From an uncultured Candidatus Saccharibacteria bacterium (lineage in GTDB: Bacteria > Patescibacteriota > Doudnabacteria > UBA920), in the NCBI GenBank assembly GCA_964597895.1, contig CAZQZS010000001.1, positions 183,178-247,177 of the forward strand: a DNA stretch of 64,000 nucleotides, written 5' to 3'. The notes beneath the pieces are model-generated. The model did no database searches. It was not told the DNA's origin and worked only from the letters and a program-made list of their open reading frames with translations. Every line of letters starts with the position of its first letter. Position 1 is the stretch's first letter. Shown here piece after piece: positions 41,409 to 51,148 of this stretch. A program made the translations under genes and the position numbers.

Positions 41409-41511
41409 TTATGATCTATTCGCGGATCTGGTTTTCCCAGGCCGAGAATCTCCAAGGAAGGGTGAGCTGTTGAGAGAAACACTTTTCAGGTCTCTTTCTT
41501 AATATTTTTTT

Positions 41512-41883
41512 ATGACTCCTGGTCAACTCATTTCCAAAACAGTACTCATGCAGCTATTTTTGGTGATCATCAAGATCATCTTTTTTGGTTTCTTAAACAT
41601 TGAGTTGTTATCAATTCTTATAGTCTATTATCTGCTTTTGGCAGCTTGTGCCATCGCTTTGGTTCGTCGCTTCGGCCCGCTTAATTACTTTGAGGCATTT
41701 CTGGCCATGGGGTTATGGTTAATACTCAGTTTAGTAATGGATTACTTAATTACAGCTTCCATTATCGGCAGGGAAGTGTTCAGTGATTATCATTTTTGGA
41801 TTTCATACGCCGTAGTACTCTTGGCTATACTGATCTTTCACAAAAAACAGCATGTGGAAATGCGCAAAGCTTTAAAGAAGTGA
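41512..41883 (+). CDS. Hypothetical polytopic membrane protein (123 aa)
   Basis: 4 hydrophobic helices. Confidence 0.5.
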   Translation: MTPGQLISKTVLMQLFLVIIKIIFFGFLNIELLSILIVYYLLLAACAIALVRRFGPLNYFEAFLAMGLWLILSLVMDYLITASIIGREVFSDYHFWISYAVVLLAILIFHKKQHVEMRKALKK

Positions 41884-41890
41884 TTAGATA

Positions 41891-41917
41891 AAACCGCTGA
41901 CTAAAGCGGTTTTTTTA
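41891..41917 (+). terminator. Rho-independent terminator
   Basis: aaaccgct-gactaa-agcggttt then ttttt. Confidence 0.85.
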
Positions 41918-41957
41918 AATAATTGCATTTAGGTGAACAATCGTATACCATAATGGT

Positions 41958-43292
41958 ATGCAACCTATAATTGCGCATATAGATATGAATTCGTATTTTG
42001 CCACGTGCGAACAGCAGGATAATCCGTCGTGGCGTGGCAAGCCGATCGGGGTGTGTGAACATCTTGGCGGGATTATTATTGCAGCCAGTATAGAGGCAAA
42101 ACGTTGGGGAATTAAGACCGGCACGCCGGTTTGGGAAGCGCGCAAGTTGTATCCGCAGGTTATTCTGACTAAAACTAATCCAGACCGTTATCGGTTCTAT
42201 ACTGCGCGGTTTTTAAAAGTGTTCGCAGATTATACCGACCGTATAGAAAAGTACAGCATAGACGAGGCGTTTTTGGATTTAAGCAAGGCTTGCAATATTC
42301 GTGTACCTGTTTATAGAAATTCCTCCCCCTCAAGAGGGGGAGGAGTCACTTATGAATATGTAGATCCGTGGGAAGAAGCACGGCGCATAATTTTAGAGAT
42401 CAAGCAGCGCATGATTACCGAGGTCGGGGATTGGATTACCTGCAGTGCCGGTATATCTTACAGCAAGCTGGTGGCTAAGATTGCTTCAGATTTGCAAAAA
42501 CCAAACGGGCTGGTGATTGTCAGGCCCGAAGACAAAGATGTGTTATATGGTCGGCTGTCGTTAATAGACATTCCTGGAATCGGCAAGCGTCAAGAACGCA
42601 ATTTAAACAAGCTCGGTATCTTTACTCTAAAGGAGCTGCGCGATTATCCGCTCAGCAAGTTAGTGACGCATTTCGGCATTGGCGGTTATCATTTGTATAG
42701 CATGGGCCAGTTGGAAGGAAGCTGGAAGGAAAGTTTTGACGAAGAGGTGGTGGCGTCGCCCGTGAAGTCTATGGGACACATGTACACAGTGCCAATTGAG
42801 TATCGCAAAAAGAATGTGATGCGGCCTGTGCTGTATAAGCTGTCGGAGATGGTGGCTGCGCGTTTGCGCGTGAATGGTTTGATGGGTAATCAAATTTATG
42901 CGCATGCTTACAATGGTAATGAGGTTCATGTTGGTCGTGGTGCTAAGATTGGCTATTATGTACAGGACGGCCGTGATATTTATCTGGAAGCGCTGACTTT
43001 ACTACGTAGTACCGCGAGTTTGCAAGAGTTAGAGACCAATACTTATTTTGTTGGGGTAACAGTGGGCGGGTTGATGCCGTACTCCCCGCAAGCCAGCTTG
43101 TTTGAAGATAAGCCTCGGCGTGAACGCTTGGCGGCAGCTTTGGACAAGATTAATCAAAAGTATACTGACTTTACCATCGCACGGGTCCCGGCGTTTTTGG
43201 CTCGCGATATTATTCGCGATAGCGTGGGCTTTGGTCGGATGAAGGAATTCAAAACAACTTTCATGCGTGGTGGTCGGGGGCGGTTTCAGTAA
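41958..43292 (+). CDS. dinB: DNA polymerase IV (Y-family)
   Basis: IAHIDMNSYFATCEQ, SIDEAFLD motifs. Confidence 0.88.
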   Translation: MQPIIAHIDMNSYFATCEQQDNPSWRGKPIGVCEHLGGIIIAASIEAKRWGIKTGTPVWEARKLYPQVILTKTNPDRYRFYTARFLKVFADYTDRIEKYSIDEAFLDLSKACNIRVPVYRNSSPSRGGGVTYEYVDPWEEARRIILEIKQRMITEVGDWITCSAGISYSKLVAKIASDLQKPNGLVIVRPEDKDVLYGRLSLIDIPGIGKRQERNLNKLGIFTLKELRDYPLSKLVTHFGIGGYHLYSMGQLEGSWKESFDEEVVASPVKSMGHMYTVPIEYRKKNVMRPVLYKLSEMVAARLRVNGLMGNQIYAHAYNGNEVHVGRGAKIGYYVQDGRDIYLEALTLLRSTASLQELETNTYFVGVTVGGLMPYSPQASLFEDKPRRERLAAALDKINQKYTDFTIARVPAFLARDIIRDSVGFGRMKEFKTTFMRGGRGRFQ

Positions 43293-43326
43293 ATATGGTA
43301 TGATTAAGCCAAAGGGGGAAAATAAT

Positions 43327-43524
43327 ATGGAGGTCAGACCAAAATTTAGTTTAGAAGAGTTGGATGGAATGATGCACGATGCTCAGAAGATGAGCATAGA
43401 CGAATTCAGAGAAAAGTATCAGGATAAGATAGAGTTAATTCCAGACGACACATTGGCAACTATTGATCTAAAAGTAAAGAAAGGGTCTAAAAAGGTTGCA
43501 TTGAATTTAGTGGGTCAAAGCTAA
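43327..43524 (+). CDS. Small protein, paralogue 1 of cassette (65 aa)
   Basis: SD aaggggg; LEELDGMMHDAQKMSIDEFREKY paralogous to next ORF. Confidence 0.6.
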   Translation: MEVRPKFSLEELDGMMHDAQKMSIDEFREKYQDKIELIPDDTLATIDLKVKKGSKKVALNLVGQS

Positions 43525-43536
43525 AAGGAGGCTATT

Positions 43537-43854
43537 ATGTTGTTTAAAGAAGATGGTTCTACAGTGAATCTTTCAAGTCTCAAATCGAAAGTGACTCGTG
43601 AAGAGCTAAAGCAATTGTTTGCTGACGCTGATGTTATGAGCAGGGAAGAGTTTGCGGCAAAGTATAACTCGTGGATTGAATCGGGTAAGTTGGATCTGGG
43701 AGAAGCAGTTCGAATAATGATGGGTGAATTAAGTGATAATTACTTATTTTCAACCCCCGATAGTGAATTAACACCTTTTCAACAGCGAATCAAGCAAATC
43801 AGGTCAACCGAAAGACTGACTAGCAAAGATTTAAATTTGACTATCAATTGTTAG
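43537..43854 (+). CDS. Small protein, paralogue 2 of cassette (105 aa)
   Basis: SD aaaggagg; REELKQLFADADVMSREEFAAKY. Confidence 0.6.
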   Translation: MLFKEDGSTVNLSSLKSKVTREELKQLFADADVMSREEFAAKYNSWIESGKLDLGEAVRIMMGELSDNYLFSTPDSELTPFQQRIKQIRSTERLTSKDLNLTINC

Positions 43855-43934
43855 TTTAGGCAATTTAGAGTTCATTGGAGGTTTTCTAAAAAGTCTATCG
43901 TGCTTTTGCGAAGTGGTGAACAAAGGAGGATGTA

Positions 43935-44129
43935 ATGAGAGAAGAACAGAAGTCCGAACGCAAGTCTATTCAAGTTAATGGCGACTTAACACCAGAAGCG
44001 GCAGCAATCGCCAATCCGCAATTCGCGGCCGCTCAAAAAGCAGCACAACCGATGTATAAACGCATCGAAGAATCTCGTCGTCTCAGCGGAGAAGACATGG
44101 CTTGGACCGCGAATACTTTGCCGGATTAG
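43935..44129 (+). CDS. Small hypothetical protein (64 aa)
   Basis: SD aaaggagg. Confidence 0.5.
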   Translation: MREEQKSERKSIQVNGDLTPEAAAIANPQFAAAQKAAQPMYKRIEESRRLSGEDMAWTANTLPD

Positions 44130-44146
44130 AAAATTAGGGGGGTAGC

Positions 44147-44389
44147 ATGCAAGAAAAAGAACCTGCAGAAATCATTTGCGAAATGATTCGCAAAGGAGAA
44201 TTGTCTTGTACAATCAATCCTGACGGAACATTTACAAAAGCTGCTGAAGAACGAATAAGCCGGAAAATTGATGCATCTGAAAATGTTTTTAGTAGTAATA
44301 TAAAAACATTAAAAGATATGCGGACATTCTCAGCAGAAGATTTGAATTCTTACATCGGTCCTACGAAAGAAAATTCCTATGACCGATAG
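44147..44389 (+). CDS. Small hypothetical protein (80 aa)
   Basis: SD gggggg. Confidence 0.5.
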   Translation: MQEKEPAEIICEMIRKGELSCTINPDGTFTKAAEERISRKIDASENVFSSNIKTLKDMRTFSAEDLNSYIGPTKENSYDR

Positions 44390-44395
44390 TCACAA

Positions 44396-44431
44396 AAGAC
44401 GCATCACCCATGGCGCGTCTTTTTTATTTTT
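44396..44431 (+). terminator. Rho-independent terminator after small-protein cassette
   Basis: aagacgc...gcgtctt then ttttttatttt. Confidence 0.8.
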
Positions 44432-44476
44432 GTGGTATAATTAATGTAAGTTTTTAGCAGTACGAAACCAAAACCA

Positions 44477-44809
44477 ATGGCGAATTTGCCAAAATACAAA
44501 CAATTTATCAGCGAGTTTGTTCGCCAACAGATTAACGTGCTTGGGCCGCAAATTGCTGTCAGTACCGCCAATCGCACAGCGGGCCTGCAGGTAGATTATA
44601 AAGGGTCCGTAATTGTGATTGAAGGGGATGCAACTTTGGTTCTGAAAGGGTTACTCTCAGAATTTAGCAAACTGATCCCGCAATTGACTTCATATTTTGT
44701 TGAAGGCTTTTTTGCTAAATACCCTGATATTGCAGAGGAGTACGGTGAGTCACCGGCAAAAAGCAATTTTCATTGTGCCTTGAAGCAATCCAAAAATTCT
44801 GCCAAATAA
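44477..44809 (+). CDS. Hypothetical protein (110 aa)
   Basis: Follows TGTGGTATAAT promoter at 44431-44441. Confidence 0.5.
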   Translation: MANLPKYKQFISEFVRQQINVLGPQIAVSTANRTAGLQVDYKGSVIVIEGDATLVLKGLLSEFSKLIPQLTSYFVEGFFAKYPDIAEEYGESPAKSNFHCALKQSKNSAK

Positions 44810-46476
44810 TGACCGTTGTAGTTTTATTACTCATAGATTTTTTCCTGCTTTCTCTTGTGTTGGCGTTTTATTTGCGCAAGATTTATAAAGAGCGCCAAGA
44901 GTTGCTTGGGCACGCGAACGAATCTTACCAGCTACAGCAGCAGATGTATCAAGTGGAAGTGCTGCAAGAAATTAGTGAGCGCTTGGGGTATTCGCTAGAG
45001 GGAAGTAAGGTTATTGAAATCATTACGAATAGTATCGGTAACTTATTAGAGTATGAGACCGTATCATTCATGCTTTATAACCAGCCAGAAAAAGTCGTCT
45101 TTAAGTGTCACGTTCACCAAAGCGTTAACCATAGATTTATCACTGAAGTTAAAGAGCATATGATTACTGCTACAGAGTTGCTCTGCGGTGGTTTGGATAA
45201 AAATATTAAATTTGATGATACAATTGGCGGCTCTTTGCTTCAAGACCACTTGGACGTTGATGTAAAATCTTATGTTAATATCCCTGTTATCATTGGTAAC
45301 GAGCTGTTAGGATTAATTAATATTTCTTCCTCAAAGCCTAATCTGTTTAAGTACGATCAGGCGGCTATTTTGTTTAACATTACTAATCAGGCTGCCAAGG
45401 CTGTGAGTCAGCTACAGACTTTACTAGAAAGCGAAAAGGGTAAGTTGATCGGCATTATCGCTGCTATGACCGATGGTGTAATGATGGTTGATTTGGATAA
45501 TAAATTGGAAATTTATAATCCTGCAGTGGTTGATTTGCTGGAGTTACCAGTAGGCCGCGAAATTACTATGTTTGATATTGTTGACTCCCTTGCCGGTAAA
45601 GTGGATTTGCGAACGAAGATTGACGAAGCCTTGGCCAAGAGCGCACCGGTGACGATTAATGATTTGGTGTTGCGTGATAAAGCTTTTGAAATCACTATTA
45701 CGCCAGTGCGCGACCATGCCGGTAATCAGCGAGGTGCGGCAGTGATTTTGCATGATGTCACTTCAGAAAAATCTTTAGAGAAGCTGCGTCAAGAATTTAC
45801 CGCTATGATGGTGCACGAGCTGCGCGCGCCGCTTACAGCAGTGCGTTGGAGCGCGGAAAGCTTGCTCAAAAATTTAACAGACGCCAAAGCGCAACTAGAA
45901 GCTGCCAAACTTAAAGAAAGCATTTCTAATATTGATATCTCTGCCACTAACATGCTTGATTTGGTTAATGATTTGCTGGATGTAGCTAAAATTGAAGCTG
46001 GTAAGTTTGATTTGAATATCCAAGAGTACGATTTGTCTGGAATTATCAGCGATGAAGTTTCTACATTCAAGGCTTTGGCCGAGAGCAAGCATTTAACTTT
46101 GAACTTTATAACGCCTGGAGTGATCAAGGTTAAGTGTGACAAGATTCGTATTGGCCAGGTCATCAGTAATTTATTGAGCAATGCCATCAAGTATACCGAT
46201 AGCGGTCAAGTAGACATTCACTTATCTACAGATCCCGCCAAGCAGCAAGTTGTGGTGGCAGTTAAAGATAGCGGCCTAGGGGTAAGCCGGGAAGATTTGG
46301 CTGTACTGTTCTCCAAGTTTAAGCAGCTGAAGAGTTTTGATCGCACTAAAAAAGGCACTGGTTTGGGTTTGGTGGTTAGCAGAGGGATTATAGAGGCCCA
46401 CCAAGGTAAAATCTGGGCGGAAAGCGCTGGGGAAAACCTGGGTTCTACTTTCTCTTTCAGTTTGCCCCTAAATTAA
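44808..46476 (+). CDS. Sensor histidine kinase (TM, GAF/PAS-like sensor, HisKA, HATPase_c)
   Basis: H-box MMVHELRAPLTAV; G2 box GTGLGLVVSRGIIEAHQGKIWAES. Confidence 0.85.
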
Positions 46477-46517
46477 CAGAATAGTATAATTAAGTCACTT
46501 AATTAAGGAGTTAAAAA

Positions 46518-46898
46518 ATGCCCAAAATTGTGTGTGCTGAAGATGACCAGATGATTGCCGCCTCGTTAGTAGAGGGTTTTAAAGGTGCTGGTTTTGAGGT
46601 TATTTCTGCATATGATGGCGAGGAGGCTTTGACCAAAATCAAAGACACTAAGCCGGATGTGGTTTTATTGGATATCATGATGCCTAAACTAGATGGCATT
46701 GGTGTTGTGTGGGAGCTAAAAGCCGATGCTGATCTGGCTAAGACCCCGGTCGTAATGTTAACTAATCTGAGCGACCCAGCTACTGTTAGCAAGATTTTGG
46801 AAGCAGGTGTTACTGATTATCTGCTTAAAAGCGAACAGACGATTGATGAAATCGTCCACAAAGTAACCGAAGTAATGAACCGTGGTAAAGGCGCCTAA
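46518..46898 (+). CDS. Stand-alone response-regulator receiver domain (CheY-like)
   Basis: DD...D(LLDIMMP)...K pattern, no output domain. Confidence 0.85.
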   Translation: MPKIVCAEDDQMIAASLVEGFKGAGFEVISAYDGEEALTKIKDTKPDVVLLDIMMPKLDGIGVVWELKADADLAKTPVVMLTNLSDPATVSKILEAGVTDYLLKSEQTIDEIVHKVTEVMNRGKGA

Positions 46899-47364
46899 TT
46901 CTCAGCAACTTTACTTAATAGCACACAATATTCGCTCCTTACATAACGTGGGAGCGATTTTTCGCACTGCTGATAGTTTTGGCGTAGACAAGATTTATCT
47001 GACTGGTTATACTGGCACGCCAATTGGTAAGAACGCTGATAAAATTTCTAAAGTTGCTTTAGGCGCGGAACAGTTTGTTCCTTGGGAGAAAGTAAAAAAC
47101 TTGGGACCGCTCTTAAAAAAGTTGAAAGCCAGTGGTGTTCGCATTGCGGTTTTGGAGAATAATGTGAAATATAAAACCACGCCTTTGCCAAAGTTTAAGG
47201 CGAAGTTTCCCATTGCTTTGGTGCTTGGCGAAGAAACTAAAGGCAATACCAAGAAAATTCTGGACCTAGCTGATGATATTTTAGAAATTCCTATGCATGG
47301 CCAAAAAGAAAGCTTGAACGTTTCCGTGGCTTGCGGCGTTGCCCTGTATCAGATTGCAAAATAA
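46882..47364 (+). CDS. SpoU/TrmH-family RNA 2'-O-methyltransferase
   Basis: HNVGAIFRTA, LGEETKG, IPMHGQKESLNVSVACGVALY SPOUT motifs. Confidence 0.8.
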   Translation: MVKAPNSQQLYLIAHNIRSLHNVGAIFRTADSFGVDKIYLTGYTGTPIGKNADKISKVALGAEQFVPWEKVKNLGPLLKKLKASGVRIAVLENNVKYKTTPLPKFKAKFPIALVLGEETKGNTKKILDLADDILEIPMHGQKESLNVSVACGVALYQIAK

Positions 47365-47365
47365 A

Positions 47366-47388
47366 AAGGAACCCGAAGGTTCCATAAG
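47366..47388 (+). terminator. Bidirectional terminator hairpin between convergent genes
   Basis: ggaacc-cgaa-ggttcc. Confidence 0.55.
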
Positions 47389-47389
47389 T

Positions 47390-48169
47390 TTAGGCCATGG
47401 CCGGAGCAAGATGTCTCTTGTAGGCCGTAATTAAATTGCGGGATTTTTCCGAGTCCAGCTGGTCTCGTTCATCCCGAATATTAGTTTCCGCATCAACGCA
47501 GAGCGGATAGTATTTGCGAAGCAGCGGTGCTACATATGGGACTGCTTCTGCATATAGCCCGCCGGCTATGCCGAATCTCAGAGAATTTTGTAGTCCTCTG
47601 GCGTAGAGTTCAGTCAAGTAGCCATCCATCACATCAACTTTGATGCCTTTGCCTGTTCCGCCCGAAGGATCGAGCAGTACATAGTCCACCAAGTCAGCGT
47701 ATTCTTTCTGGACTTTATCGGCAAGAATTTTTGGGTTCTTGTCGATTCTCTCGTAGGCGCCTGGCCCGATTTGCAGGACAATCAGGTGAGGGTAGTACAG
47801 ATTGCGAAATCTTTCGATTTCTTTCGGGTTAGGCCAAACCATGTTTAGCTGAAAACCGTGAAGGTTATGCCAGCCTTTGTCTCCAAGTCGCTGCAGTTCT
47901 GTGGTGAAATTATCGCTGCTGCTGTTATAGTGAATCATATTCAGCAGCCGTGGTGCTTCTAGCAGCAGAGAGGGGACTTCGCTGAGTTTAGGGTAGCGAT
48001 TGGGGTTACTAGCTGGCTCGCCGTTCAAAGTTTTGCGGCTGACCAGAATTCCTAACATCAGATAATAATCGGGGTTAGGGAGAATGGATGTATCGAACAT
48101 ATCCGAGCCAATCACATCGTATGCTTGTTCAGCGGTCGTTATTCCCGTAATTCCATAATAGGGATACAT
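47390..48169 (-). CDS. TIM-barrel protein with phosphoribosylanthranilate-isomerase-like (TrpF-family) motifs
   Basis: VLLDPSGGTGKGIKVD and GIAGGL resemble PRAI phosphate-binding motifs; low-confidence family assignment. Confidence 0.4.
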   Translation of the reverse strand: MYPYYGITGITTAEQAYDVIGSDMFDTSILPNPDYYLMLGILVSRKTLNGEPASNPNRYPKLSEVPSLLLEAPRLLNMIHYNSSSDNFTTELQRLGDKGWHNLHGFQLNMVWPNPKEIERFRNLYYPHLIVLQIGPGAYERIDKNPKILADKVQKEYADLVDYVLLDPSGGTGKGIKVDVMDGYLTELYARGLQNSLRFGIAGGLYAEAVPYVAPLLRKYYPLCVDAETNIRDERDQLDSEKSRNLITAYKRHLAPAMA

Positions 48170-48191: not shown

Positions 48192-48437
48192 TTATTCGGC
48201 AGTTGCGTATTCGAATTTGAATTCGCTGGGGTAGCCTTCGCTCATCCATTTGTTAAGTGATTCTTCGGTTGGCGTACGTTGGCATTCACATGAACACTTG
48301 GCTGTTGGTCGGCCTGGGATTTCGATGTCCCTAAAACATTTATGTTCATGAACGCCTAATGCGCGGCACTCTGGGCAAGTCAACTTGCCATCCTCCTCTA
48401 GGATGGGGTTTCCCGCCCTGTCTTCAATTAGTCCCAT
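48192..48437 (-). CDS. Small Cys-rich (putative Zn-binding) protein; start moved to internal ATG preceded by AAGGAGG
   Basis: CPEC...C..C.C pattern; strong SD 8 nt upstream of internal ATG. Confidence 0.5.
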   Translation of the reverse strand: MGLIEDRAGNPILEEDGKLTCPECRALGVHEHKCFRDIEIPGRPTAKCSCECQRTPTEESLNKWMSEGYPSEFKFEYATAE

Positions 48438-48579
48438 TATTAGTTCCTCCTTTGCGGTAAATTGTGCCATAAAGGGTTAAAAAAAGCTACCCCAGCGGTT
48501 AAGCCCGACTATTCCCTCACAGCAAGTAGGCGCGGGAAATCCTGTTGATAAACCCCTCACTGGAAAGGGGGTGGTTTAG

Positions 48580-49089
48580 ATGTATACTCACCAATCTAAA
48601 AGGAGTAAAATAAGAGATATGTGGAAAAGAAGAAGACTTTTACTTTTATTGAAACATCTTGAAGGGTATATTGGTTCTGTTGCTCACAATCAGGGTGTTG
48701 GAATTTGGACTGACGAGGTTGGGGTGGATTCTATTCGTTTCCAAATATTTTATGAGTATCACAATAAGTTGAGATATTTTATTCAATTTGCCTTTAGGGT
48801 AAATAGAGAGTTTTCTCAAGATGAGGAAATACCTAAACCCAAAAAGAAAAGGTTTAATTTAGCTGAGTTTAATGAACTACTTAATGTTTTAGAAAAAGAA
48901 GGGTTAGTTAAAATAACTAAACTAGCTGTCCACGAAAATATAAGAATTACCCTTGAGGGCGAAGAATATATCAAGCCGGCTTATTTTTACACAGCCATCT
49001 TGGAGAAGTTTAAAATTTGGTATGTATTCTTCGCAGGCTTGCCAATAGGGTTTGTTATAGGAGTAATATACGAATATATTGGTAAATAG
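48580..49089 (+). CDS. Hypothetical protein in AT-rich islet (169 aa), C-terminal TM helix
   Basis: Markedly lower GC than surroundings. Confidence 0.45.
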   Translation: MYTHQSKRSKIRDMWKRRRLLLLLKHLEGYIGSVAHNQGVGIWTDEVGVDSIRFQIFYEYHNKLRYFIQFAFRVNREFSQDEEIPKPKKKRFNLAEFNELLNVLEKEGLVKITKLAVHENIRITLEGEEYIKPAYFYTAILEKFKIWYVFFAGLPIGFVIGVIYEYIGK

Positions 49090-49326
49090 GTGTGGATAAG
49101 ATACATACCAAAATGTATTTAATTGATATACAATAGATATATCAGAACTGTTCTTTCAAAATGAAAGAAAAATATAAGGAAAACATATAAAAGAAAAACC
49201 CGCTTGTTTAGAACAAACAGGTTGACTTTTATTGATTTCTAGTTATAATAAGGTTTCTTCGACTTTATTGCCTAGACGCGGGGCATATACTTGGGAGCAA
49301 CTATATCTGAATTTCAGGTAGTGCTG

Positions 49327-49431
49327 TGGAGAGGGCGCCGGGATTTGAACCCGGACCTTGGCCTAAGTTGGCCTGCCTCTGGGGAGGTACAGTTTTCAAG
49401 ACTGTTGCTTTTTCCATTAAGCTACGCCCCC
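49327..49431 (-). tRNA. tRNA-Ser(UGA)-like, 105 nt, with abnormal 34-nt variable region
   Basis: Acceptor GGGGGCG/CGCCCTC, D arm GCTT-AATGGAAA-AAGC, anticodon arm ACAGT-CTTGAAA-ACTGT, T arm CCGGG-TTCAAAT-CCCGG, encoded CCA. Confidence 0.7.
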
Positions 49432-49534
49432 AAGAGTATACACCCCGCGTCTGAGCAATAATAAAAACGCTCAGTAAATTATTCTCTCAGAAATATTTTC
49501 GAAGGGGATGATTAAGAACTAAGTTTCTAGAAAG

Positions 49535-49681
49535 CTACGTTTTCACTGACGTAGTTTTCTGCTTTTTAGGGCGAGCGGGAAACTTATACCACTTGCCTTT
49601 TGCAAGACGAAGCTTGCCTTTGATGTAGATTCCGTTGCAGAATATATAACCATCTTTTTCAAAGCATTGTTGACTAACCAT
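49535..49681 (-). CDS. Candidate small Lys-rich protein (48 aa, CxxxxxxxC)
   Basis: AGGAGG 11 nt upstream of ATG; not in track (short). Confidence 0.3.
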   Translation of the reverse strand: MVSQQCFEKDGYIFCNGIYIKGKLRLAKGKWYKFPARPKKQKTTSVKT

Positions 49682-49743
49682 AGATAGAAGAGCCTCCTTT
49701 CTCTTCAAAAGCACATCTGAAAGAACAATAGGTAGGTATCAAA

Positions 49744-49854
49744 AAAACTTGTACCCGATTCATAATGCAAGGCGCAGAACCCTTTCGGGAATACGCTTTG
49801 TAGCGCATGGACTTTTTAGTTTCCTTGCACTATGAATCCGACACAAGTTTAGTG
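49744..49854. repeat. Palindromic element: ~28-nt near-perfect inverted repeat (aaacttgtacccgattcataatgcaagg / ccttgcactatgaatccgacacaagttt) flanking 50-nt core with two small hairpins
   Basis: Seen directly; adjacent to IS1595 transposase 3' side. Confidence 0.55.
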
Positions 49855-50012
49855 TCATGGCTCTGCCTATCTTGAGGGGGTCCAACCCTGTTTGTAAAAG
49901 TACTGAAATAAATATAGCATATTCAAAAAGCCAAGCAAATAGCTTGGCTGTGGAAAACTGATTATGAATCAAGAACCAGAAAAACAAGACTTCTTTGACC
50001 TCCTCGACGAAG

Positions 50013-50855
50013 CTATTGGTGAACCAGCCGATTTAAAAGCACCAAGAAAATCGGAACAGGAGAGCGAGAGTGAGTCAGACGAAAGCTAAACTCGTTTAAG
50101 TAGTCCTGCAAATATTTGGGCGAGACTCTATGATACGTGCCATCGATAGACCGCTTGATTTGGCTAAAGAAGCCCTCAACGCTGTTGGTGTGAGTCCAGC
50201 CATTAACATACTGCTTACTAGAGTGGTTCACAGAGCTATGACCATAACCCTTTAGGCTCTTGCGGTTATACACCGAAGCACCGTCAGTCATAATCGCACT
50301 GCCGGCCTCAACCTCGTTATGGATTAACGGAATGGTATTGAACTGCTTTATTTTCTGCATTACCACAGCTTTAGCACTACCGCCACGCTGAACCAAACCT
50401 AAAACCTTTGGAACACCCGCCCTAGAGCGTGGTGTTTTCATTTTCTCCAAGTAGGCTTCATCCACCTCAACCACTCCGCTTAGTTTTAAGTCGCTCAAAT
50501 CCATAAGGGAGCGGATTTGTTTAGCGATACGCCAAGCAGTTTTGTAGGTTACACCCAAGTCTCTTTCCAACTCTTTGCCGGAAACTCCATTACGAGAGTT
50601 GGCGAACTTGTAAATGGCGAAGAACCACAAGACTAAATCTGTTTCTGATTTATGGAAGATAGTCCCAGCAGTGGGGTGAATTTGATAAGCACAGCTAGCG
50701 CAAGCCCACGCTTTGCGTTTCTTAATCCTGTGCCAACTAGACTTCCCACAGTTAGGGCAAGGGAACTGATAGCCATAACGATACTTAAAGATATACTCCA
50801 AGCAAGCGTCATTATCTGGGAAGTCTTTTTTGAAGTCTTTTATTGTGTATTTCAT
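50013..50855 (-). mobile_element. IS1595-family (ISXO2-like) transposase gene; IS boundaries not determined
   Basis: N-terminal Zn-ribbon CPNCG...CASC; DDE region with DEAY, TDGASVY, HSSVNHS..YVNG.HTNSVEGFFSQIKR. Confidence 0.85.
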
Positions 50856-51148
50856 ACATTAAAGTTAATTATATTTTGAGAGTAACTCCATACTTACTTG
50901 TTGTCAAGGGATAGTCGGGCGGTTAAGTGTGCATAACTAGGGAGCTATTTCGGAGAATCATCAAAACCTTTTTAATTAAGAGGGTTTTTTTAGTTTTGAG
51001 GTGAGGTATATAAATTGAAAAATGGGTCAGAGTGGGGTATACTGACTTCAAGTGGAATGGAGTGGGGAAAAGTGGGGATAAGTGGGTGGATAAGTGGACA
51101 ACTCAAATCATTCAGATTTCTGAAACTAACAGTAATAGACGCGAAGAC

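Follow-up and report, generated by a model that had tools for sequence, protein, structure and literature searches.

Are the four very small genes that lie between dinB and a two-component signal transduction operon in a Saccharibacteria genome real and related to one another, and do they serve the kinase encoded next to them? In Saccharibacteria and other Patescibacteria, the majority of genes are small open reading frames (ORFs) without annotation, and the reality and spread of such ORFs are rarely clear. The locus considered here lies in a stretch of 64,000 nucleotides (nt), hereafter the window, from an uncultured Candidatus Saccharibacteria bacterium (assembly GCA_964597895.1, contig CAZQZS010000001.1, positions 183,178 to 247,177), where the four genes, denoted o1 to o4, are followed by the gene for a protein of 110 amino acids (aa), o5, and by genes for a histidine kinase (HK) and a response regulator (RR; Table 1). 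A preliminary description of the window had proposed that the small proteins are signalling peptides or anti-sigma-like modulators feeding the two-component system. The scenario that we favour, with slightly better than even confidence, is that the four genes are paralogues which form a self-contained, dispensable and exchangeable cassette of ~1.2 kb (~43220-44446) in a fixed slot between dinB and the o5 operon, and that their products would act by C-terminal docking.

The four ORFs, their canonical Shine-Dalgarno (SD) sequences and the terminator that closes the array, all noted in the preliminary description, were recovered by ORF calls, duplex energies and RNA folding, and ORFs of the same four lengths appear in independent gene calls on other assemblies. 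Each ORF is preceded by an SD of the AGGAGG or GGGGG type with an anti-SD duplex energy of -10.9 to -11.8 kcal/mol (o1, -10.9; o3, -11.8; o4, -11.2), compared with a median of -1.5 kcal/mol for 58 long ORFs of the window, the starts of which were set to the longest possible reading frame. These are the strongest such sites in the window, all four falling within the top ~2%, and the same duplex energies indicate no SD at dinB, o5 or the kinase gene. The genes o1 to o4 are separated by gaps of 12, 80 and 17 nt, and their products are probably made in abundance. Between orthologues, the ORF lengths are exactly kept and the ratio of non-synonymous to synonymous changes per site (pN/pS) is 0.15-0.42 (0.26 for o2 against the related locus L003 and 0.25-0.35 for o3); because pS is close to saturation in most pairs, the true ratios are lower. 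Given the exact lengths and these ratios, the small ORFs encode proteins and are under purifying selection. Their rate of change is several times that of the kinase (pN 0.2-0.39 versus 0.04-0.08), and o4 of the window is a hyperdivergent allele, with 43-45% aa identity to the other alleles of its subfamily, whereas the kinase is 94% identical.

The preliminary description had left room for the small ORFs not being conserved; both their lengths and purifying selection on them are maintained. The related notion that they are chance reading frames or decaying remnants without protein function could draw on the lack of database relatives and on the low confidence of the o2 structure model. Set against this are the exactly conserved lengths, the pN/pS values, the canonical SDs at all four genes and the divergent orthologues (29-45% identity) that retain the common module and motif described below, so that this explanation deserves hardly any probability and, for o2 to o4, is already refuted by the conservation data.

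The tandem duplication of o1 and o2 that had been suspected from the outset turned out to understate the relationship. BLASTP aligns o1 with o2 (14/34 identities, pairwise E = 4e-6), the orthologue profiles of o3 and o4 match in hhalign (probability 96.8%, E = 2e-10 over 48 columns), and hidden Markov models (HMMs) connect the remaining members. Three subfamilies can be delineated, namely A (o3-like), B (o4-like) and C (o2-like, including short forms of 63-67 aa), which have in common a C-terminal module of ~45 residues, ..DGxLTPEAxA..F..P....I..SRRL(T/S)xED(M/L)xF... With leave-one-subfamily-out HMMs, A and B are linked at E of 1e-11 to 1e-16 and C is linked to A and B at E of 2e-4 to 2e-2, reciprocally, and no unrelated sequence among 4323 six-frame ORFs outscores these family links. 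The motif reported earlier for o1 and o2 is present, except that EEL and DA are separated by five residues, not four, and in the alignment it corresponds to the first helix of the family module. The C-terminal consensus SRRLTAEDM holds the sole residue, apart from Met1, that is invariant in the family alignment. Because o1 reaches only E 0.11 with the C-only profile, it is the weakest member; genes of the o1 type are present only alongside the four-gene cassette, and o1 is the youngest and least certain member of the family. Judging from these comparisons, o1 to o4 are all paralogues that arose by duplication and constitute a single, previously undescribed family.

The known members of this family come from few organisms. 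A word-indexed search of 5.8 billion proteins retrieved for o2 only three 90% clusters (83-100% identity) and for a concatenated o1, o3 and o4 query nothing, and an exhaustive profile search with HMMER against 1.84 billion representatives (50% clusters) gave seven matches, five of which are true members (the clusters of o2, o1, P0021, P0022 and P0024), all from a narrow Saccharibacteria clade. The other two, P0023 and P0025, are internally repetitive, were aligned via several weak stretches and were rejected as spurious. A scan of species-representative genomes located the family at two loci, both in uncultured Candidatus Saccharibacteria. When every member was scanned against Pfam, PHROGs, NCBIfam and PADLOC, all matches were sub-threshold and non-recurrent, a PDB profile search with the family gave nothing beyond AlphaRep and apolipoprotein noise driven by repeats, IMG/VR, GenBank phages and JGI metagenome contigs yielded no relatives, and a literature search brought up nothing on either the small-protein family or the slot.

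The gene order in every related contig (designated by L numbers) is dinB, slot, o5-HK-RR-(YdjM)-SpoU, and all genomically placed family members reside within the slot between dinB and o5, including those from lineages with a kinase that is only 65% identical to that of the window. The content of the slot varies (Table 1): family genes are present in different combinations, in one lineage in swapped order, each family-occupied slot holding at least two different subfamilies; other slots accommodate unrelated genes, and several are empty. One of the unrelated occupants, x118, is a protein of ~118 aa with a conserved CPxCE motif, which either occupies the slot by itself or follows genes of the family, with a terminator of its own; it belongs to no Pfam or PADLOC family, and neither x118 nor the unrelated 226-aa ORF contains informative domains. 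A gene for a YdjM-family membrane hydrolase lies between the receiver and SpoU genes in many relatives (L004, L007, L023, L025 and L026) and is missing in the window, L002, L011 and L021.

The boundaries of the cassette are well delimited. A TGnTAxxxT element, which would be an extended -10 element, occurs at the same place after dinB in all seven slot-bearing locus types, whatever the first gene, in the form TGATATATT, TGCTATAAT, TGTTATACT or TGTTATAGT in the other loci; it is followed by a strong SD and then by a start codon ~34 nt past the dinB stop, irrespective of the first gene. A consensus scan detected no -35 element at this putative promoter. At the other end, the array closes with an intrinsic terminator, which a simple terminator scan missed because of its 12-nt loop, and a homologous hairpin with a T-run was found in L003, L004, L011, L014, L016, L020 and L026. 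The terminator is followed by the conserved promoter of the o5 operon, TTTGTGGTATAATTA, which is present in every locus, including those with an empty slot, where it abuts the dinB stop. In L003, a full copy of the terminator, promoter and 5' untranslated region (UTR) is retained between o2 and o3 (a gap of 190 nt), and the 80-nt spacer between o2 and o3 in the window is a deletion derivative of this module. Rfam detected no structured RNA at 41500-47500. Given the terminator and the promoter elements of its own, the cassette would therefore be a separate transcription unit.

An alternative that has to be weighed at this point is that the small proteins are accessories of dinB, co-transcribed with the polymerase IV gene and involved in the DNA-damage response as polymerase regulators or checkpoint proteins, after the fashion of the Escherichia coli dinB-yafNOP operon. 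The genes are indeed on the same strand, dinB and o1 are separated by a 34-nt gap without a terminator, the ~34-nt spacing past the dinB stop is kept whatever the first gene, and the left recombination anchor (see below) is inside dinB. However, the conserved -10-like element intervenes between dinB and the first ORF, and lineages that lack the family still have an intact, conserved dinB. Furthermore, the small proteins show no similarity to YafN, YafO, YafP, UmuD or any toxin-antitoxin family, the four are mutually paralogous rather than a toxin-antitoxin pair, and no clamp-binding motif is visible. Taken together, this makes a role as dinB accessories very unlikely.

The strongest case for exchange comes from L026, an 851,616-bp contig of GCA_022842405.1 in which the flanks of the slot are 91-99.7% nt-identical to those of L007, where the slot is empty. 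The cassettes of the window and L026 are nearly the same, with nt identities of 100% in the leader, 99.5% in o1, 94.3% in o2, 100% in the spacer, 100% in o3 and 99.6% in o4, compared with 75% in dinB, 66% in o5, 75% in the HK gene and 74% in the RR gene. Cassettes that are 94-100% identical between flanks that are only 66-75% identical imply that the entire unit passed horizontally, and recently, between lineages at ~25% divergence. The left breakpoint falls within the last ~80 nt of dinB (~43215-43292), which appear to serve as the left recombination anchor, and the right one directly after TGGTATAATTAATG, such that the identity between the window and L026 stops just past TTAATG. A similar mosaic is seen in other comparisons: pS between the window and L003 is 0.33 for o2 and o3 versus 0.76 for the flanks, and between L003 and L014 it is 0.27 for o4 versus 0.65-0.82 for the flanks. 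The window and L002 are near-identical over ~6.5 kb, and most of their 78 substitutions are concentrated in four short tracts, the changes being mostly synonymous in the dinB and SpoU tracts and mostly non-synonymous in o2, of which the L002 allele matches that of L026. These tracts indicate what is probably frequent short-patch recombination between co-occurring lineages. A diversity-generating retroelement was considered for the o2 changes and rejected: the substitutions are not specific to adenine, dinB and SpoU contain matching clusters, and L002 has the allele of L026.

Since integrase, transposase and attC-like repeats are all lacking from the unit, homologous recombination via the conserved flanks is the simplest reading of these exchanges; Saccharibacteria are naturally transformable. 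Integron cassettes can be dismissed as a model, given the absence of attC-like inverted repeats from the gaps and of an integrase, ends that consist of a promoter and a terminator, and breakpoints located in homologous flanks. The closest likeness is to the accessory-gene hotspots of streptococci, that is, the capsule and bacteriocin (blp) loci, which are exchanged by homologous recombination or natural transformation. The features in common are a fixed position between two core genes, variable and reshuffled contents with some empty sites, mosaic alleles and breakpoints in the flanks. Unlike in streptococci, the cargo here amounts to only ~1.2 kb of tiny paralogous genes of an orphan family, transporter, modification, immunity or mobile-element genes are lacking, and the right anchor is merely a promoter element of ~15 nt. 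Thus, the family is new, in that it is undescribed and without detectable relatives; its setting is of a known kind, lineage-specific small genes in a core-gene recombination hotspot; and no new mechanism is demonstrated.

Do the small proteins feed the kinase, as originally proposed? The downstream genes themselves are as had been described, that is, a 110-aa protein, a membrane kinase with sensor domains and one N-terminal transmembrane (TM) helix, and a stand-alone receiver (Pfam, KD19). The kinase has HisKA (6e-14) and HATPase_c (1.6e-26) domains and, as read from the sequence, an H-box HELRAPL, and the receiver, when aligned to E. coli CheY, has the acidic pocket, phospho-Asp, Thr and Lys all in place and no output domain; accordingly, by domain and residue content, 44809-46898, exclusive of o1 to o4, is a two-component system. 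The receiver is not an orphan, as it had been called, because its gene follows the kinase gene after 41 nt, and the SpoU gene overlaps the receiver gene by 17 nt and would therefore belong to the same operon. In the related contigs, the o5 stop and the kinase start overlap by 1 or 4 nt (TAATG or ATGA), which shows o5 to be coupled to the kinase in translation and to be its constant partner. In every locus, o5 shows both the co-occurrence and the shared transcription unit expected of an obligate partner, and o1 to o4 do not.

For o5 itself, the word-indexed search retrieved 13 clusters with identity of at least 59%, the AlphaFold2 (AF2) model is confident (predicted local distance difference test, pLDDT, of 83), and an invariant Cys is located near the C-terminus. 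There is no significant PDB fold match, and non-significant H-NOX matches head the lists. The comparison with sensor pairs of H-NOX and histidine kinase concerns o5 only, not the four small proteins, and assignment of o5 to H-NOX, a heme fold of ~180 aa, was rejected given its length of 110 aa, a single His that is not conserved, the lack of YxSxR and the non-significance of the fold matches. In several lineages, the o5 5' UTR is long (~100-180 nt) and includes a conserved extended hairpin, CCCTGTTGAACAG...CGGTTCAACAGGG; that of the window is short and lacks this hairpin, which may regulate the kinase operon as an RNA element.

The kinase does occur without the small genes, an observation that the preliminary description had named as one that would refute its proposal. 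The o5-HK-RR operon accompanies an empty slot in L007-L010, L023 and L024/L025 and unrelated slot cargo in L011-L013 and L021/L022, the cassette has recently moved into a lineage with a kinase 75% nt-identical to that of the window, and the alpha4-beta5-alpha5 face of the receiver is invariant with or without the family. Given that the constant partner is o5 and that the operon is conserved without the family, the kinase system works without the small proteins, and the cassette appears not to be an obligate input of its neighbour. Thus, in view of the insulating terminator and promoter, the operons devoid of the family, the transfer and the invariant receiver face, a role of these proteins in feeding the two-component system is not supported.

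A weaker version of this idea, in which the small proteins are optional modulators or output adaptors that bind the receiver or the kinase via a terminal phi-(S/T)-x-E-(D/E)-(L/M)-x-phi peptide, in the manner of FliM or CheZ, was retained because the family has never been seen outside this locus. All located members adjoin the o5-HK-RR operon across deep divergence, a receiver without an output domain must signal by protein contacts, and a transferred cassette would still meet its target given the invariant receiver surface. Moreover, the terminal motif, of the form phi-S/T-x-E-(D/E)-(I/L/M)-(D/N)-x-phi-phi and here adjoining the gene for a single-domain CheY-like receiver, may be likened to the CheY-binding peptides at the N-terminus of FliM and the C-terminus of CheZ. 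There is, however, no statistical similarity, in that the PDB profile search retrieved neither CheZ nor FliM and Pfam gave no FliM match; the motif also fits a generic helix N-cap, and Saccharibacteria are not known to have flagella. A terminator and a distinct promoter set the operon apart from the cassette; at least five lineages that lack the family have an intact operon and the same receiver face; the SDs, much stronger than that of the kinase, speak against stoichiometric partnership; and the cassette is linked to dinB just as closely. On balance, we consider optional modulation of the two-component system unlikely.

The other functional classes proposed or suggested by the small size of the proteins also fail to accommodate them. 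The o1 to o4 products have isoelectric points of 5.0-5.4, a negative grand average of hydropathy and a maximal KD19 below 0.4, with no signal peptide or TM segment, so the signalling peptides of the preliminary description are not borne out; a secreted signalling peptide, a bacteriocin and a precursor of a ribosomally synthesized and post-translationally modified peptide were all rejected on the KD19 values and the absence of a match to Nif11 or another leader family, and no transporter or modifying enzyme is encoded in the locus. Nor are they anti-sigma-like: no member matches an anti-sigma factor, an antagonist or any other known domain in Pfam or NCBIfam, and the neighbours in the locus are dinB and o5-HK-RR-SpoU, with no adjacent sigma factor. 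A type II toxin-antitoxin system was rejected given the mutual paralogy of the members and the lack of a corresponding match in Pfam, NCBIfam and PADLOC, and a phage- or plasmid-borne family given the lack of an IMG/VR, GenBank phage or PHROG match, plasmids not being part of the search. The tandem paralogous genes, helical products of ~60-100 aa, conserved C-terminal motif and fast evolution are reminiscent of WXG100/Esx pairs; unlike these, no member of the family has a W-x-G or a Pfam WXG100 match and no secretion ATPase is encoded nearby, and membership is unsupported.

The fast evolution raises the further possibility that the proteins serve an epibiotic parasite in conflict or in interaction with its host; the C-terminus would then act as a translocation signal, with the bodies as effectors, anti-defence or immunity factors delivered to, or directed against, a host or phage. 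The hyperdivergence of o4 (43-45%) next to a 94% identical kinase, the strain-variable presence and recent horizontal transfer, the strong expression signals, the conserved C-terminus attached to divergent bodies and a slot that also accepts unrelated cargo would all be compatible with such a function. Conversely, no secretion-system, phage or defence gene lies nearby, PADLOC and PHROG gave no match, viral collections contain no relatives, pN/pS is below 1 throughout and the conserved region spans ~45 residues, not the tail alone, so that this scenario is highly improbable. It is also quite unlikely that the C-terminal SRRL(T/S)xED(M/L)xF peptide is a targeting signal, for export to the bacterial host or for docking on the invariant receiver face; if it were, the portable, fast-evolving cassette would serve as an effector or output layer specific to the strain, which lineages swap by natural transformation.

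We therefore return to the exchangeable cassette that acts by docking. Under this scenario, the cassette comes with a putative extended -10 element, a terminator and four very strong ribosome-binding sites, all its own, and would produce small, soluble, mildly acidic, predicted all-helical and abundant adaptor-like proteins. Different subfamilies may associate with one another as hetero-oligomers, which is suggested because they regularly co-occur in slots. The SRRL(T/S)xED(M/L)xF motif, a C-terminal helix cap, would dock on a conserved cellular partner, the fast-diverging bodies would supply strain-specific specificity, and transfer would proceed by recombination anchored in the conserved 3' end of dinB and the conserved promoter. 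A docking peptide is favoured because the motif is highly conserved yet of low predicted order: in the AF2 model of o2, which is all-helical with six short helices, it has a pLDDT below 50 and is not packed.

Docking is the weakest step of this scenario, and several observations weigh against the scenario as a whole. The o2 model is poor (pLDDT 56.6), and the docking and hetero-oligomer proposals are drawn from conservation, co-occurrence and this low-confidence model. The putative promoter of the cassette consists of a conserved -10-like element only and, since there is no terminator between dinB and o1, the cassette may be co-transcribed with dinB. Finally, the family never occurs away from the junction of dinB and the two-component operon, even at 65% kinase identity, a confinement that might stem from a functional link with a neighbour and not solely from history and flank-mediated recombination.

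Table 1. Positions of the features discussed, in window coordinates unless a related contig (L number) is given, and occupants of the slot between dinB and o5
Feature	Position or contigs	Strand	Remarks
dinB	41958-43292	+	DNA polymerase IV, 444 aa; Pfam IMS, IMS_C, IMS_HHH; core gene, left slot border
Extended -10-like element	43296-43304	+	TGGTATGAT; putative cassette promoter directly 3' of dinB stop; read from sequence
o1	43327-43524	+	65 aa; truncated paralogue (C') of o2, N-terminal helix module in common
o2	43537-43854	+	105 aa; subfamily C; family module with ~24-residue insert; C-terminal end STERLTSKDLNLTINC
o2-o3 spacer	43855-43934	+	80 nt; 100% identical in L026
o3	43935-44129	+	64 aa; subfamily A; carries ..NGDLTPEAAAIANPQF..SRRLSGEDMAWTANT
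o4	44147-44389	+	80 aa; subfamily B pattern EPAEIxCExIRxGE..PDGxxT..R(T/R)(F/L)(S/T)AED(L/M)
Intrinsic terminator	44394-44431	+	GACGC..GCGTC then T-run; fold dG -14.7 kcal/mol, z -2.97
Extended -10 promoter of o5-HK operon	44433-44446	+	TGGTATAAT (44433-44441) + TTAATG; apparent right recombination anchor
o5	44477-44809	+	110 aa; conserved accessory protein of kinase
Histidine kinase	44809-46476	+	555 aa; N-terminal TM anchor, GAF, PAS, HisKA, HATPase_c (Pfam); KD19 max 2.79
CheY-like response regulator	46518-46898	+	126 aa; Response_reg only, E 1.6e-23 (Pfam)
SpoU-family RNA methyltransferase	46882-47364	+	Pfam SpoU_methylase E 2e-35; synteny conserved
Window-L002 substitution tracts	43145-43244, 43386-43437, 43642-43833, 46983-47064		first tract: dinB 3' end
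169-aa ORF	48580-49089		GC content 0.30-0.33; weak winged-helix and CARF-like matches
tRNA-like gene	49330-49431	-	102 nt; Rfam RF00005, 62 bits; not called by ARAGORN
ISXO2/IS1595 transposase	50013-50855	-
Long o5 5' UTR	L007 7916-8042; L026 6064-6229; L016 975-1196; L020 635-818
x118	L003 10989-11345; L011 7564-7920; L014 2034-2441
Unrelated 226-aa ORF filling slot	L021/L022 3180-3860	-
Slot: o1-o2-o3-o4	window, L001, L002, L026-L029
Slot: o2-o3-o4-x118	L003
Slot: n64-o3-o4-x118	L014
Slot: o4-like, then o3-like	L004-L006		swapped order
Slot: n63-o4-like	L016-L019
Slot: o3-like-n67	L020
Slot: x118 alone	L011-L013		unrelated CxxC protein
Slot: 226-aa ORF	L021/L022		reverse strand; unrelated
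Slot: empty	L007-L010, L023, L024/L025

Downstream of the locus, at 48400-50900 of the window, a second small island was observed, which is missing from the interval between SpoU and MraZ in L004, L007 and L011. It includes a tRNA-like gene, located between a low-GC ORF of 169 aa and an IS1595-type transposase gene; the length of the tRNA-like gene suggests either a tRNA with a long variable arm or one that bears an insertion.

For work on gene function, the locus nominates a short conserved motif as a candidate docking element, together with strains that naturally differ in the presence or absence of the family. It also corrects a reading by guilt by association, in that the constant partner of the kinase is o5 and not the four small proteins, and it provides a clean case of small ORFs that are real and have boundaries (promoter, SD and terminator) set to within a few bases. 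The transferred cassette is direct genomic evidence of homologous exchange of accessory genes in an epibiont with a reduced genome, between species that are ~25% divergent.

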